From positions 1-64,000 of the forward strand of contig NW_027191499.1 in assembly GCF_011745625.1 (NCBI RefSeq): a stretch of 64,000 nucleotides of DNA, read 5' to 3'. Origin of the DNA: Cladosporium halotolerans. Taxonomy: Eukaryota. A program made the position numbers and the translations under genes. The notes under the pieces were generated by a model. The model saw only the letters and a list, made by a program, of their open reading frames with translations, was not told the origin of the DNA and did no database searches. Positions 34,592-48,371 of the stretch are shown piece by piece (positions within the stretch are counted from its first letter, which is position 1; each line of letters starts with the position of its first letter).

Positions 34592-35624
34592 TCAAGCACT
34601 AGGCGCAAGCGCAATATCATACTCCAAATCCAACTTAGCCTCAGGATCGTCCTTACGCGGCAGGAATGTCACACACAACTCGTCTTTGACAGCGAATACG
34701 CTGTCGTCAGCCAGATACTTGCAACCTTTGTCAAATATTTGAGTCGTCAGGTGCTTGTAGCCTTTGTAGCCAACCACCAAGTGGATGTGAGCCGGACGGA
34801 ATGGATGGCGATCCATTAGCTTCAGCAATTGTCCGGCCGGTCCGTCGTCGGGTACCTTTGAGACATGAATCTTCCGACGAAAAACGTGAGGGTTCAAGGA
34901 TGTACTTACAGGATATGGTGTAGGTCGTAGACAGTACAAAGAGTATCTGCCTTCATCGTCTGTTACGTATTTGCCGCGGAGGTTCAGGTCGCGCTGGTTG
35001 GGGTCCTGCTGTTCGTATAGACCTACGGTGGATTTAGCGGATGCTACACCTGAGACACATTGAGACACTACCATTTGTGGATGCTTGCCAAATGTCAATC
35101 GTAGCGCCGACTATAGGTTTGCCGGTCTTTACATCTGTGACTTTGCCATGCATGAAGGCCACTTCCGCATCTTTGGGGGTGTCGAAGCTGATCGTCGTGC
35201 CGTTTTGTCGCACGGGATGATCATTCCGCCAGAACGGACCAAGGATTGCTGAGGATGTCAAGCCGCTTGAGCTCCTCGTGGCAGCGGAAAACGTGATGTC
35301 GTCTACTAGTGTGTGGAACGGTCAGCTACGTTGTCCATTGCTGCAATGATCGTGGGTAACGTATGATTCAATGCCGATAACGTCGCACATCAGCTGCCCC
35401 TCATTACGCTTGTCGTCGCTCATTTGACCAGCCCAGTTGATGGCGTTCACTCCCATCATCCACTCATCCGTCGTGAGCTGGGTCTCGAGGGCAAACTCAT
35501 GCAAGTGTCTGATCAACGAAGACATGATCTCCCGAAATCGCGCGGGAGTCTTGGGACCCATAGCATCCACGACACTTTGAGTGAACTCTTTGCCCAGAAG
35601 CCCTGTGTCTCCTTGTGAACCCAT
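34592..35624 (-). CDS. Intradiol ring-cleavage dioxygenase, catechol 1,2-dioxygenase type, 3 introns (first appears AT-AC)
   Basis: RHLHEF, MSDDKRNEGQL.CDVIG.ESLVD, ILGPFW, DIWQASTNGLYEQQD, PTPYPVP and RHPFRPAHIH (Tyr/His iron ligands). Confidence 0.93.
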
Positions 35625-36340
35625 GATGTGATGATAGTATGGCGGTTATTGAAGCTGAGATCAATGCGTAGATGCGTTGGTGTTTGTTGAGCTGCTCTAA
35701 TGTATTGGCACAAAGCACGCAACAACTTTACGATAATGGTGTCGAGATAATACAAATACTAAAGGCAATTATTGGTCTTTCTACGCTTCCAGCCGGCATC
35801 CGTCCCGTAAGTATATTTCTCAATCCCGCGAGCTCCAGGTGCGATAACCGCCCGGCGGACCGTAGTCCCCCATGAGGTAGCACATCGCGGGGAACTTGTG
35901 CAGGGTCAAAGTATACAGCATGGAGAGGAGGGGAACCCTGCTGAAGTAGCGGATTGAGAGTTTGGAGATGTGATCAAGTTGCTCGGTCCGTACGTCCCGG
36001 CAAACAGAGGGTCAGCCTCGGCGGCTACGTTCGCCGGATAGGTGCCATGTCGATGGCGGCTATCCCCAGACTGCTCCGCACAACCTCCACCACCAGCGAC
36101 GTTGTTCCTGGCGGCCGCGTGGTCTTTGGTTTCCCATGCCATAGAGCTGACAATGCCCGAGAGCCGGTCATGTGCCGTTACATCGGCTGGCGGACGCAGG
36201 GCGACGCTCTTTAAGAAAGCTTCAAGCTCGCAGGTGGCGTAGCTTTGTTGACCTGATTTATTATCATTGTCAATATCATTTTATCGTTCTCCAGTCAGCC
36301 TCGATAACTATCTACTTCAGACCTCTTATCATAGATCGCG

Positions 36341-37406
36341 ATGTTGGGAAAGGTTGCTTTGGAAGAAGCCTTTGCGCTGCCGCGCTTCCACGAAAGGACT
36401 CAATGGTGGGCTTCTCTTTTTGCTGTCGATGCGAAGAAGCATGCGGCAGAGATCGCAGACATCACAGACCAGCGTATCAAGTACATGGATAAGCATGGAG
36501 TTGGGCACACAGTCCTCTCTTACACAGCGCCTGGCGTTCAAGACATTTGGGACCCTAAAGAGGCACAAGCGTTGGCGGTCGAGGTCAACGACTACATCGC
36601 TGATGCCATCAAGAACCACCACGATCGCTTCAGTGCTTTTGCGTAAGCTTCATAGAATTCTCGACTCTTGAGATCTTCGGCTGACATCCATGCTCAGAAC
36701 TCTTTCCATGCATGACCCGAACGAGGCATCCGCGGAGCTGCGCAGGGTGATCACCAAATACGGCTTCAAAGGTGCTCTTGTCAATGACACACAACGCGCC
36801 GGTGCAGACGGCGACGACATGATCTTCTACGATGGCCCCGAGTGGGACGTCTTCTGGTCGACAGTCGAAGAGCTCGACGTGCCATTCTACCTGCACCCCC
36901 GCAACCCGACCGGCTCCATCCACGAAAAACTGTGGGCAAAGCGTTCATGGCTCATCGGCCCTCCGCTCAGTTTTGCGCAAGGAGTCAGCCTGCACGTCCT
37001 GGGAATGGTCACCAACGGCGTCTTCGACCGCCACCCCAAGCTCCAGGTCATCCTCGGCCACTTGGGCGAGCACATTCCTTTCGATATGTGGCGCATCAAC
37101 CACTGGTTTGAAGACATCAAGAAGCCGCTGGGCTTGTCGTGCAAGAAGACAATTCGCGAATACTTCGAGCAGAACCTTTGGATCACGACGAGCGGCCACT
37201 TTTCGACTTCGACCTTGCAGTTCTGTCTTGGTGAGGTTGGCGCGGACCGCATTCTGTTCTCGATTGACTATCCATTCGAGTCTTTTGGCGATGCTTGCGA
37301 CTGGTATGATGATGTCAAGATGAACAATTCGGACAAAAAGAAGATTGGACGGGATAATGCGAAGAAGTTGTTGAAGCTTGGAGAGTTCAAAGATAGCACG
37401 GCTTAG
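36341..37406 (+). CDS. dhbD: 2,3-dihydroxybenzoate decarboxylase (amidohydrolase_2 family), 1 intron
   Basis: N-terminus [16 protein letters not shown]...WWASLF closely matches the Aspergillus enzyme as I recall it; YLHPR, GHLGE and LFSIDYPFE; intron 36643-36698. Confidence 0.92.
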
Positions 37407-46454: not shown

Positions 46455-46905
46455 TCTAGGGTCTCACGTTGAACATTCTCCCCTGAGGTCAAGATACGAA
46501 TAACGCATTGACTTGGTAACGACGCATGTTTTGGCGGAGGAGCATTCGCTGGAGGAACGAGTTTGAGCCTTTGACGCCGCACTTATAGTGTTATTTTCCC
46601 AAAATTTTATCACAACCCACTTTCGGTCCATTGGTATATCTAGAGACGCAAGACATTAAAACCTTGGATACTGTTCTTCGACCTTCTATTTTCTAGCCAG
46701 GCAAACCAGTTTGGGAAAGTCCTTTCAAGAAACCTTGGGTCTTGACGGCATCTCCATCTTGGATACTGTGTCCTGCTATGACAGGCAATGCACTATCAAG
46801 AATCAAACCTGTATGAGTGCGGCGAGGTCGGATATAGTATTTTGGGACGGAAGTGACAGAAAGAGTTCATTGAGGCTAAGTACATGATGTTGACGAAGGG
46901 TTATC

Positions 46906-48371
46906 TCAGGCACTAGCACCAATCACGATGCCATTCGGCAACTCCAGTCCAATGGGGAGTCCGCAGATGAAGTTCCCAGCATAGCCCGATCCCTTCGCAG
47001 CGGCCAGCTTCTCCTCGATATCACGGTACATGTCATAACTGGGCATATCCGTTAGCAGGGCATCTTGGATTTGGCAAAGGATAATTGTCACTCACGCATT
47101 CATTTCTTCAATCGTCAACACATTCTTTTGGTCCTCGACCTTGTAGAATGGCAGGTCCTTGTTGTTCGAGAAGCCGATGCGCTCGTTGATATTGTAAGCG
47201 GCTTTCGCGGCCGCCGACTGTACCCTGGTGGCACGCGGAAGGCGGACCTTGTTATAGACTGCGAGCGACTGCTCGATGTTGCCGTCAAAGTAGGCTGGGC
47301 TGAACAGGATTCCAATCGCAGCGGCATCTTCGATTGCCATGCAGGCACCTTGGCTTTGGTGGGGCATCATAGGGTGGCCGGCGTCGCCGAGAAGGCAGAC
47401 TCGCTGCTTGTTGAGGTAGGGGTAGGGGTCATGGATCCAAAGCCTCCAAGGCTGGATCTCTTTGCCGATGGCAAGGTGGCCGAAGACCTGTCGGTCAAGC
47501 TCGGGGTAGGGCTTCAGCAACTCTTCGACTGGACGGTCTTCGGCACCCCAGGCTTGGTTTACGTAGTCGCCTTGGTCTCGAGGAAAGAAGCAGTAGTAGG
47601 AGAGGAGTTTGCCACCGTTGCAAGGGGACAGGACGATCTTGTCCCACTTGCCCTCCTGACCTCCCCAGTACTCGAGAGCTTCGTTAAGTGAGTAGTCCAC
47701 AAGGCCGGCTTTGACAGCATCATCGGTCATGACATTGCAGTGGAGGCACTGCTGGTCTGCTGGCCGTCTCGTGGGGTGGATGCCGATAATATTGCGGACT
47801 GCTGAGCCGATGCCATCAGCTCCAATAATCAGGTCATGTTGCGCAATGACGCCGTTCTCGAAAGTGATTGTGTTGGTGTCGAGGTCGATGTCTTTACACT
47901 ACGGGAGGTTGTCAGCTTACTTGTACTTTATATTGATGGTCGAGACGATCGTGGACTTACTCTGTGGTTGACCAACAGCTTAGCAGGCGAGCCTTTGCCT
48001 TCCTCACCCAGTGCGCTGTCCTTCAGCATGGCGTGCATGTACTGTCTGTGGAACATGTTGTAGACATAGCCCCATCGTTGCTCGTAGTCGTCAAGGCTAT
48101 ACTCGCTGATTGGCTCACCCGTCTTCCAGTCGCGGTTGATCAGCCTCTTGAGGACGACAGGGTCACCCTTAGCGACATCGATGTCCCACTCGTGCAGCCA
48201 TCTTGTGCCGTTCGCCGCGCATGAGACTGAGGCACCGACTTCGCCGGCGAAATCTGAGCGTTCGTAGATGGTTACTTCGTGGCCAGCGCGTCGCAGTGCA
48301 ATTGCAACACACATGCCACCAATACCACCGCCGGTCACGCCAACGTTGAGCTTTCTCCAGCCGACGGCCAT
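46906..48371 (-). CDS. Class A FAD-dependent aromatic hydroxylase (salicylate-hydroxylase-like), 2 introns
   Basis: GGGIGG, IGADGIGS (DG motif) and LLGDAGHPMMPHQSQGACMAIEDA (GD motif). Confidence 0.92.

Follow-up and report, generated by a model that had tools for sequence, protein, structure and literature searches.

Which genes would let a mould convert indole into anthranilate, and anthranilate into catechol? Indole is a widespread signal of bacteria and plants, and it is also a pollutant. Aspergillus niger degrades it to anthranilate and catechol, and Diaporthe (Phomopsis) liquidambari is also cited as a degrader of indole. According to an excerpt of a 2018 review, the indole oxygenase of A. 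niger was sought unsuccessfully in 1990, and its activity was not measurable (PMC6221969). We found no fungal genes for an indole oxygenase in the literature. A locus of Cladosporium halotolerans raises this question again. It lies in a window of 64,000 nucleotides (contig NW_027191499.1, positions 1 to 64,000), which is the whole stretch of DNA analysed here. Between positions 34592 and 48371 the window holds seven contiguous genes, six of them identified by Pfam on exon translations. We consider them a candidate cluster for a two-stage catabolic route. In this route, an indole-type bicyclic aromatic would be converted to anthranilate, then to 2,3-dihydroxybenzoate (2,3-DHB), catechol and muconate, under a Zn2Cys6 regulator of its own. 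We give this reading a probability of about 0.4.

The proposed route starts with a class B flavin monooxygenase (FMO), which would oxygenate the C2=C3 bond of indole to an epoxide or dihydrodiol. A short-chain dehydrogenase/reductase (SDR) would oxidise this product to 3-hydroxyindolin-2-one. Then, a protein similar to bacterial IifA would open and shorten the five-membered ring to give anthranilate, using no cofactor and acting through its conserved SnoaL-fold domain. In the lower stage, a NahG-like FAD hydroxylase would convert anthranilate to 2,3-DHB. The decarboxylase DHBD, whose enzyme identity comes from close homology, is predicted to produce catechol. Finally CatA, an intradiol dioxygenase by family, would presumably use catechol as its substrate and release cis,cis-muconate. 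The cluster would accomplish what the bacterial iif pathway does, using other components: the FMO for IifC/IifD, the SDR for IifB and Zn2Cys6 for AraC. Only the IifA-like gene is homologous between the fungal cluster and the iif operon. The initial annotation had proposed one candidate gene for each step. The gene types are all present; however, the FMO is unrelated to its iif counterpart, the SDR resembles IifB at the generic level, and we infer the substrate of each step.

Gene content and transcription

The window is fungal, with short GT-AG introns. Pfam was run on exon translations (31 open reading frames, ORFs, in one scan and 10 in another), and the introns of the gene models were taken from joints in RNA contigs. 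These contigs come from public runs and were aligned to positions 34000-49000; they show the presence and splicing of transcripts, not levels or induction. The range begins at the stop of CatA (34592) and ends at the start codon of the FAD hydroxylase (48371).

CatA lies on the minus strand (34592..35624), has three introns and encodes 291 amino acids (aa). Its Dioxygenase_N (1.9e-25) and Dioxygenase_C (1.1e-28) domains fall in the ORF 34592-35645. The third intron (35310-35363) has 54 nt, is in frame and shows the non-canonical ends TG..TA on the plus strand. Contigs of the runs X13 and X3 back it, and with 1-2 nt of ambiguity it can be read as AT..AC on the gene strand. DHBD is on the plus strand (36341..37406, 336 aa, intron 36643-36697), with Amidohydro_2 (4.4e-23) at 36672-37406. 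The FMO (38067..39808, 561 aa, intron 39716-39771) and the SDR (40828..41714, 278 aa, intron 41287-41336) are both on the minus strand. They present FMO-like/Pyr_redox_3 at 38067-39767 and adh_short at 40828-41837, respectively.

The IifA-like gene occupies 42259..43665 of the plus strand and encodes 416 aa, with introns at 42596-42647, 43079-43130 and 43301-43352. It is followed on the same strand by the Zn2Cys6 transcription factor (44054..46454, 730 aa, four introns seen), with Zn_clus (7.3e-07) and Fungal_trans (3.4e-10) at 44027-45328. The class A FAD hydroxylase, of the salicylate-hydroxylase (NahG-like) type, closes the cluster on the minus strand (46906..48371, 448 aa, introns 47039-47095 and 47899-47960), with FAD_binding_3 (1.2e-11) at 47092-48422. 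Pfam, homology, fold and gene models place all seven genes where the initial annotation had named them, the regulator included. The two divergent gene pairs it described are also real in the gene models. CatA and DHBD share a divergent promoter region at 35625..36340, and the SDR and the IifA-like gene share another at 41715..42258.

All seven genes are transcribed. Joints with the intron removed were found for every gene in run X3 and for six of the seven in the metatranscriptome X13. CatA has spliced contigs in both runs, and so does DHBD, with a GT..AG joint. The SDR joint is found in X2, X13 and X3. For the transcription factor, the joints are in X3, and one of them is also in X13. Run X1 shows no joints and behaves like DNA. 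One contig of X2, of 1461 nt, covers the IifA-like gene with no differences from the window and all three introns removed. The start of an X2 contig at 42107, where loose, adaptor-like letters stand, is probably the 5' end of the IifA-like transcript. Another X2 contig terminates in a run of A after 37446, and we read it as the 3' end of DHBD.

The window contains 17 copies of the palindrome-like word CGGNCCG, of which 10 fall between 34 and 49 kb. Upstream of cluster genes there are five: two between CatA and DHBD (35856 and 35984, both CGGWCCG, which is weak evidence), one before the FMO (40043), one between the SDR and the IifA-like gene (41923) and one before the hydroxylase (48709). It is a possible Zn2Cys6 site, with an enrichment that is weak after testing 64 patterns. 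No exact 9-11-mer was common to three or more of the five upstream regions of the cluster.

The FMO and hydroxylase models are identical to proteins of C. halotolerans, P0121 (WHR41_08702) and P0241 (WHR41_08706). Their accessions, KAL1582555 and KAL1582557, leave room for one protein, and three genes lie between them. The IifA-like protein has no 100% match among database proteins of 252-2000 aa, the best being 69% (exon 2). From the accession spacing and this missing match, the deposited annotation may miss or mis-model the IifA-like gene. Automatic names mask the module, as the initial annotation had warned: we saw the labels 'carboxymethylenebutenolidase', 'LEA domain protein', 'dimethylaniline monooxygenase' and 'salicylate hydroxylase'.

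The IifA-like protein and the bacterial iif operon

Is the IifA-like protein a relative of IifA? Pfam gave no relevant match on its four exons, with nothing usable even at E up to 1. In five full-length fungal homologues, DLH was found in none and SnoaL in four, always below the threshold. A search with exon 2 gave 442 relatives. Among the 120 listed, all those with a species name come from ascomycetes, and the annotations read 'carboxymethylenebutenolidase', 'LEA domain protein' or 'SnoaL-like'. When species-representative genomes were searched with a profile of 18 fungal proteins, 155 bacterial relatives appeared; this profile gave tblastn E-values of 1e-54 to 2e-69. Over 363-382 aligned residues, the window protein shares 34-38% identity with nine bacterial proteins. 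Compared with the proteins of bacterial iif operons, its N-domain is 17-22% identical and its C-domain 51-57%.

The fold agrees with this homology. We modelled P0007, a C. fusiforme homologue with 74% identity, with AlphaFold on an alignment of 85 sequences (pLDDT 93, pTM 0.90). This model replaces an earlier run on 18 fungal sequences, in which the pLDDT was 57 and the C-domain was unreliable. Its N-domain resembles dienelactone hydrolase (1din, TMt 0.57). Its C-domain resembles the SnoaL/NTF2 folds 5x7l (TsrD, 0.81) and 1sjw (SnoaL, 0.72), limonene-1,2-epoxide hydrolase (5aii, TMt 0.71) and the polyketide cyclase AknH. The confident model with these two domains and the full-length homology to bacterial DLH+SnoaL proteins bear out the architecture first assigned to this gene: a degenerate DLH-fold N-domain and a conserved SnoaL/NTF2-fold C-domain.

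Nearly all the residues that are invariant across 85 fungal and bacterial sequences sit in the C-domain (the invariant polar ones are H228, E232, R236, R289, E299, H306, E342, H343 and Q348, in P0007 numbering). It suggests that the conserved chemistry of the family would reside in the SnoaL-fold domain. Dienelactone hydrolase (carboxymethylenebutenolidase, EC 3.1.1.45), the usual automatic name, has the same alpha/beta-hydrolase fold as the N-domain. In contrast, the IifA-like protein has an extra SnoaL-fold domain, and the Cys nucleophile and the His of the triad are replaced.

The bacterial relatives were examined in context, keeping 80 loci. In 12 of them, IifB-, IifC- and IifD-like genes are beside the relative. 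Pfam was used on a set of 12 loci, where the relative carries DLH in 11 and a SnoaL-type match in four. In seven loci of this Pfam set, the relative is next to an SDR and a styrene-monooxygenase-like oxygenase (Smoa_sbd; StyA model in NCBIfam). A flavin reductase was found in five of these seven by Pfam and in all seven by tblastn. Three loci (L057, L059 and L077) carry an AraC-type regulator, followed in Pfam order by DLH(+SnoaL), SDR, Smoa_sbd and Flavin_Reduct, and L057 and L077 also have a MetA-type channel (Phenol_MetA_deg). These operons match the layout and gene sizes of iifR-iifABCDE, as given in an excerpt of the published description (PMC4577076). In published work, IifA converts 3-hydroxyindolin-2-one to anthranilate (PMC6221969; PMC10934121). 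The claim that this protein is homologous to the IifA family, with relatives in iif-type operons, holds. Other bacterial contexts include a P450-ferredoxin fusion (Caballeronia L010) and an SDR with a CoA-transferase (L001). An HpcH-aldolase/SDR fusion at Dongia L026 is echoed by the fungal merged model P0091. In fungi, merged gene models fuse paralogues to HpcH aldolase, cytochrome b2 or NmrA/SDR domains.

Several results weigh against the same reaction in the fungal protein. The DLH Cys and His (GYC-LGG and D-H-AF) are kept in eight of nine aligned bacterial rows, the exception being Caballeronia L010, and are replaced in all six aligned fungal rows. The window reads CHSKQLW and R-DRWF at these sites. 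We built a tree of 100 rows by a quick search, after dropping six rows as short or duplicate. Three bacterial rows (L008, L032 and L068) were built from tblastn envelopes running through stop codons. The 26 fungal rows form one clade (SH-aLRT 100) apart from all 74 bacterial rows, and its branch is long, with 1.63 + 0.81 changes per column. On the bacterial side, the 11 iif-linked rows do not group together but are spread out. Because the DLH Cys and His are lost and the clade is separate and long-branched, the chemistry of the fungal proteins may differ from the bacterial. There are also fungal paralogues, at least three in Fusarium graminearum, where the FMO-adjacent P0088 is not the closest to the window protein. 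Moreover, iifB/C/D genes are missing from the surrounding 7 kb or so in 68 of the 80 bacterial loci, so IifA does not stand for the whole range of functions in this family. By sequence, the window gene belongs to the IifA family, but it is not a demonstrable IifA orthologue.

The partners of the IifA-like gene are not those of the iif operon. The SDR (adh_short_C2, 2.6e-29 and 1.6e-20 on two exons) matches the IifB of L077 at 28% over 132 aa and 25% over 106 aa. This is the level of generic SDRs and a further point against the route, and with 25-28% identity we rejected the SDR as an IifB orthologue. Its nearest PDB structures are generic too (mannitol dehydrogenase, EntA and carbonyl reductases). 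The FMO presents Pyr_redox_3, FMO-like and Lys_Orn_oxgnase in Pfam, and its PDB relatives are distant: the best is 8acs (2e-10), followed by FMOs and Baeyer-Villiger monooxygenases (BVMOs). Type I BVMOs carry the fingerprint FxGxxxHxxxW[P/D]. A regular-expression search of P0121 found no strict BVMO or FMO fingerprint, only FHAKDF. We considered whether the FMO, SDR and IifA-like genes were a BVMO with a dehydrogenase and an esterase. This was rejected, as the BVMO fingerprint and the hydrolase triad are missing. Pfam found no Smoa_sbd or Flavin_Reduct in the cluster, and no Phenol_MetA_deg in the window. Conversely, homologues of the FMO (by tblastn), DHBD or CatA were not found beside the bacterial relatives in the 80 loci. 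There is one weak hydroxylase-like match in L002 (22% identity, E 2e-7).

The comparison with the iif/ind systems (WHOP dhoAB-ipoABC; Acinetobacter, Cupriavidus and Pseudomonas) has two sides. The two-domain build of IifA is common to the fungal protein. As in the iif operon, a flavin oxygenase, an SDR and an IifA-type gene stand side by side. The bacterial product is anthranilate, and the fungal counterpart would likewise feed the ortho-cleavage of catechol. On the other hand, the fungal oxygenase is a single-component class B FMO, whereas IifC/IifD is a two-component group E enzyme. The SDR is non-orthologous, the regulator is Zn2Cys6 instead of AraC, there is no MetA-type channel, and the fungal IifA-like proteins form a clade apart, in which the Cys and His of DLH are missing. 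Fungal anthranilate would go through an FAD hydroxylase and a decarboxylase, not through anthranilate dioxygenase. If the FMO, the SDR and the IifA-like protein perform iif chemistry, they do it by non-orthologous replacement.

Hence, the idea of a eukaryotic iif counterpart stands in gene content and order, in the homology of the IifA family and in the linkage of these three genes. It is unsupported or weaker than claimed for the SDR, whose similarity to IifB is generic, for the FMO, which is unrelated to IifC/D, and for the IifA-like protein, which is in its own clade. We propose, with the odds somewhat against it, that the trio would be a fungal indole oxygenase pathway, convergently assembled round one family shared with bacteria. 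In it, a class B FMO would replace the two-component oxygenase, and the NTF2/SnoaL domain would do the cofactor-free ring-opening oxygenation. The alpha/beta-hydrolase domain would be a catalytically dead scaffold.

Conservation of the gene linkage in fungi

Do these genes stay together in other fungi? Three fungal classes, the Dothideomycetes, the Sordariomycetes and the Eurotiomycetes, keep the FMO, SDR and IifA-like genes linked, and the FAD hydroxylase and the regulator frequently accompany them. By locus tag or accession, the FMO and the IifA-like gene are adjacent or next but one in Fusarium decemcellulare (FDECE_6521/6523), Fusarium sp. NRRL 66182 (3340/3339), F. graminearum (FGSG_07636/FG05_07637), Diaporthe helianthi (v212196/v212194), Sporothrix eucalyptigena (005771/005769) and Chaetothyriales CBS 135597 (g4372/g4374). 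The same is seen in Cordyceps militaris (EGX90351/EGX90353), Exophiala mesophila (B0A52_08816/08818), Acrodontium (WPH03954/03956) and Paramyrothecium (KAI9148309/307). In Acrodontium (P0008) and Colletotrichum (P0090), gene models merge the IifA-like gene with the transcription factor, so the two are neighbours there as in the window; the Acrodontium model is two accessions from the FMO. The listed FMO and IifA-like copies are on different contigs in F. duplospermum, F. lateritium and F. longipes. Among 15 metagenome loci, found with the FMO, six show the trio directly (L081, L083, L085, L087, L088 and L089, in four distinct arrangements). The remaining nine are too short or hold paralogues. 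We see in the upper trio a fungal module, both conserved and transcribed, with an IifA-family protein at its centre. We found no literature description of it, of a fungal IifA-like cluster or of FGSG_07636/07637.

The FAD hydroxylase is beside the trio in C. fusiforme (008319/008321), Acrodontium (WPH03957), Paramyrothecium (KAI9148304), E. mesophila (PV10_01964/01965), Cosmosporella, L083 and L088, often with a regulator. The grouping goes beyond chance, as five of the seven genes are found linked in other fungi too. DHBD and CatA behave differently and count against a single route. They are not near the module in any of the 15 metagenome loci, including the 10-kb flanks of L081, L083 and L088. 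So far, only this window joins them to the module, and the link between the upper and lower stages rests on this junction and on the hydroxylase. The conserved linkage that had been expected was found for five genes; for DHBD and CatA, it is seen only here.

This absence favours two independent neighbours, an explanation we regard as somewhat unlikely. DHBD and CatA, possibly with the hydroxylase and the regulator, would form a catechol-branch unit for salicylate or for anthranilate of the kynurenine route. The FMO, SDR and IifA-like module would be unrelated to it. In agreement, the hydroxylase gene lies apart from the trio in F. graminearum, Penicillium riverlandense, Exophiala spinifera, Stylonectria and F. 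langsethiae. In such unlinked positions it is 75-90% conserved, so it must serve a function independent of the trio. In addition, the dhb and crc genes of Aspergillus respond to salicylate. Nevertheless, the hydroxylase and the regulator are beside the trio in at least seven independent places with differing gene orders, which favours a common pathway. The one IifA reaction known yields exactly the type of substrate that the lower unit would use. Transcripts of all seven genes in the same run (X3) also speak for one route, as presence only and not as co-regulation.

Another explanation is the tailoring of a secondary metabolite, an indole alkaloid or a polyketide, instead of catabolism. Tailoring is a common role of SnoaL-fold proteins, class B FMOs and SDRs, one FMO orthologue is named 'DEP4', and the C-domain resembles the polyketide cyclases SnoaL and AknH. 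However, neither the 125 ORFs of at least 120 aa outside the cluster nor the cluster ORFs revealed a PKS, NRPS, terpene cyclase or prenyltransferase domain. Two enzymes of the cluster are dedicated to ring degradation, and the module is widespread and conserved, not patchy or lineage-specific. We consider this explanation very improbable.

Between Cladosporium, one of the Dothideomycetes, and the Stachybotryaceae, which belong to the Sordariomycetes, the cluster proteins are more alike than usual, with identities from 84% to at least 90% (against P0122, P0004, P0397 and P0400). The FMO is 84% identical, and the hydroxylase is in the same 90%-identity cluster as that of Stachybotrys elegans; the C. 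fusiforme hydroxylase is in one with Paramyrothecium. The IifA-like clade also mixes Dothideomycetes and Sordariomycetes. This closeness and the mixed clade suggest that the five-gene module was transferred between fungal classes.

The lower pathway and the substrate of the trio

The lower half of the cluster is ordinary and largely anticipated in print. Taken alone, the lower pathway probably works as proposed, from anthranilate to 2,3-DHB, catechol and muconate. DHBD is an unambiguous 2,3-DHB decarboxylase by homology. In the PDB, its exon 2 matches the 2,3-DHB decarboxylase of Fusarium oxysporum (6m53, 3.8e-149, 498 bits over 235 aa), then 7wjr/7a19 (about 3e-133) and salicylate decarboxylase (3.5e-93). 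The decarboxylase call made at first is confirmed by these solved enzymes. For CatA, the best NCBIfam models are catechol 1,2-dioxygenase equivalogs, far under the cut-off with exon queries only. Its best PDB match is 8r2x, a 6-chlorohydroxyquinol 1,2-dioxygenase (4e-24), so CatA may be specific for catechol or for hydroxyquinol.

The hydroxylase has the class A fold and the FAD motifs. Its PDB matches are 8r2t (6e-19), vanillate 1-hydroxylase, 6-hydroxynicotinate 3-monooxygenase and salicylate hydroxylase. Its orthologues are 75-90% identical across ascomycete classes, and FGSG_09063 of F. graminearum is 78% identical. We found no gene-linked reference sequence for a flavoprotein anthranilate 3-hydroxylase (deaminating). 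An excerpt of one study describes that A. niger and F. graminearum degrade tryptophan through anthranilate, 2,3-DHB and catechol (PMC7842363). AN7418 of A. nidulans was rejected as a counterpart of the hydroxylase. It is a 2292-bp gene of the phenol-2-monooxygenase type, so it belongs to a different family (Table S4, PMC7842363). A precedent is srg1 of Ustilago maydis. It is NahG-like and strongly induced by salicylate, its enzyme does not turn salicylate into catechol, and growth on tryptophan requires it (PMC5082525). It was proposed as an anthranilate hydroxylase ahead of the decarboxylase-like UMAG_12178, and it adjoins the Zn2Cys6 regulator gene rss1 (UMAG_05966), judged by locus number (PMC5082525).

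The window also has the 2,3-DHB decarboxylase and intradiol dioxygenase of the known fungal 2,3-DHB route (A. niger DhbA/CrcA, A. nidulans dhbD/AN4532, U. maydis Rss1-Srg1-UMAG_12178 and Trichosporon anthranilate hydroxylase). A NahG-like hydroxylase beside a Zn2Cys6 regulator, compared by gene type only, is likewise common to U. maydis and the window. What differs is that these genes are physically joined to the FMO, SDR and IifA-like trio. The initial annotation was aware of no genetic description of such a cluster in fungi. This stands for the upper trio, for which we found nothing in the literature. It does not stand for the lower pathway and its Zn2Cys6 regulator, already proposed in U. 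maydis (PMC5082525).

Two published observations go against anthranilate as the substrate of the hydroxylase. FGSG_09063 is induced about 30-fold by salicylate (PMC6331432). Also, by the titles of papers cited in PMC3546652, the anthranilate hydroxylase of A. niger was published as a non-haem iron enzyme, and that of Trichosporon as a flavoprotein. This weakens the A. niger enzyme, cited in the initial annotation, as a precedent for the FAD hydroxylase.

There is a live rival, which the Fdc1/Pad1-type neighbours of the trio keep open. In it, the trio acts on an oxygen analogue or a vinyl-aromatic and not on indole. The FMO would epoxidise the double bond of vinylphenol, benzofuran or a styrene-type compound. 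The SDR and the IifA-like protein would process the epoxide or diol to ortho-hydroxybenzoate. The resulting salicylate would then pass through the hydroxylase, DHBD and CatA to muconate. The gene neighbourhood weighs in its favour and against indole. In L088 (stretch 323-9540, and the same in L087), contigs of one metagenome fungus, five genes come ahead of the trio: a VAO-like gene and those for an FMN dehydrogenase, an aldehyde dehydrogenase, a Pad1-like flavoprotein and an Fdc1 homologue, which matches A. niger Fdc1 at 8e-179. L081 carries a Pad1-like gene near the trio, at the contig end (3-488). The fungal Fdc1/Pad1 pair takes cinnamate to styrene. Further, the bacterial partners of IifA are styrene-monooxygenase-type enzymes, and the C-domain fold also matches an epoxide hydrolase. 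The loss of the DLH triad in fungi allows an altered reaction. The sources annotate the hydroxylase as a salicylate hydroxylase, and FGSG_09063 responds to this compound.

Other findings speak against this rival. The sole reaction shown for the IifA family is on 3-hydroxyindolin-2-one. The E2-type styrene monooxygenases adjoining IifA are now held to be indole oxygenases, according to an excerpt of PMC5874493. Induction by salicylate is also seen for srg1, and yet Srg1 does not convert salicylate to catechol. The Fdc1/Pad1 neighbourhood corresponds to one of the four distinct metagenome arrangements, with the lone Pad1-like gene in a second, and it is absent from the window. We know of no fungal styrene route with these three enzyme types. 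We consider a vinyl-aromatic or oxygen-heterocycle substrate unlikely.

Upstream of the cluster, on the minus strand, there are a GMC oxidoreductase (22793-24409) and a sugar/MFS transporter (26208-27461). An AnmK-family (levoglucosan-kinase-like) gene follows on the plus strand (31627-32926). These three genes (22793-32926) may be an anhydrosugar utilisation group. Downstream, a carboxylesterase gene (49998-51365) lies about 1.6 kb past the hydroxylase, and an amidase fragment (63169-63999) is at the end of the window. Either could in principle serve a step of the N-formylanthranilate type, and nothing ties them to the cluster.

For the long-standing biochemical question of fungal indole degradation, the cluster offers one candidate gene per step. 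Routine labels conceal what is a coherent module. This five-gene module may move between fungal classes. If the indole route is true, many moulds could remove indole and feed on it, since the module is conserved in three ascomycete classes.

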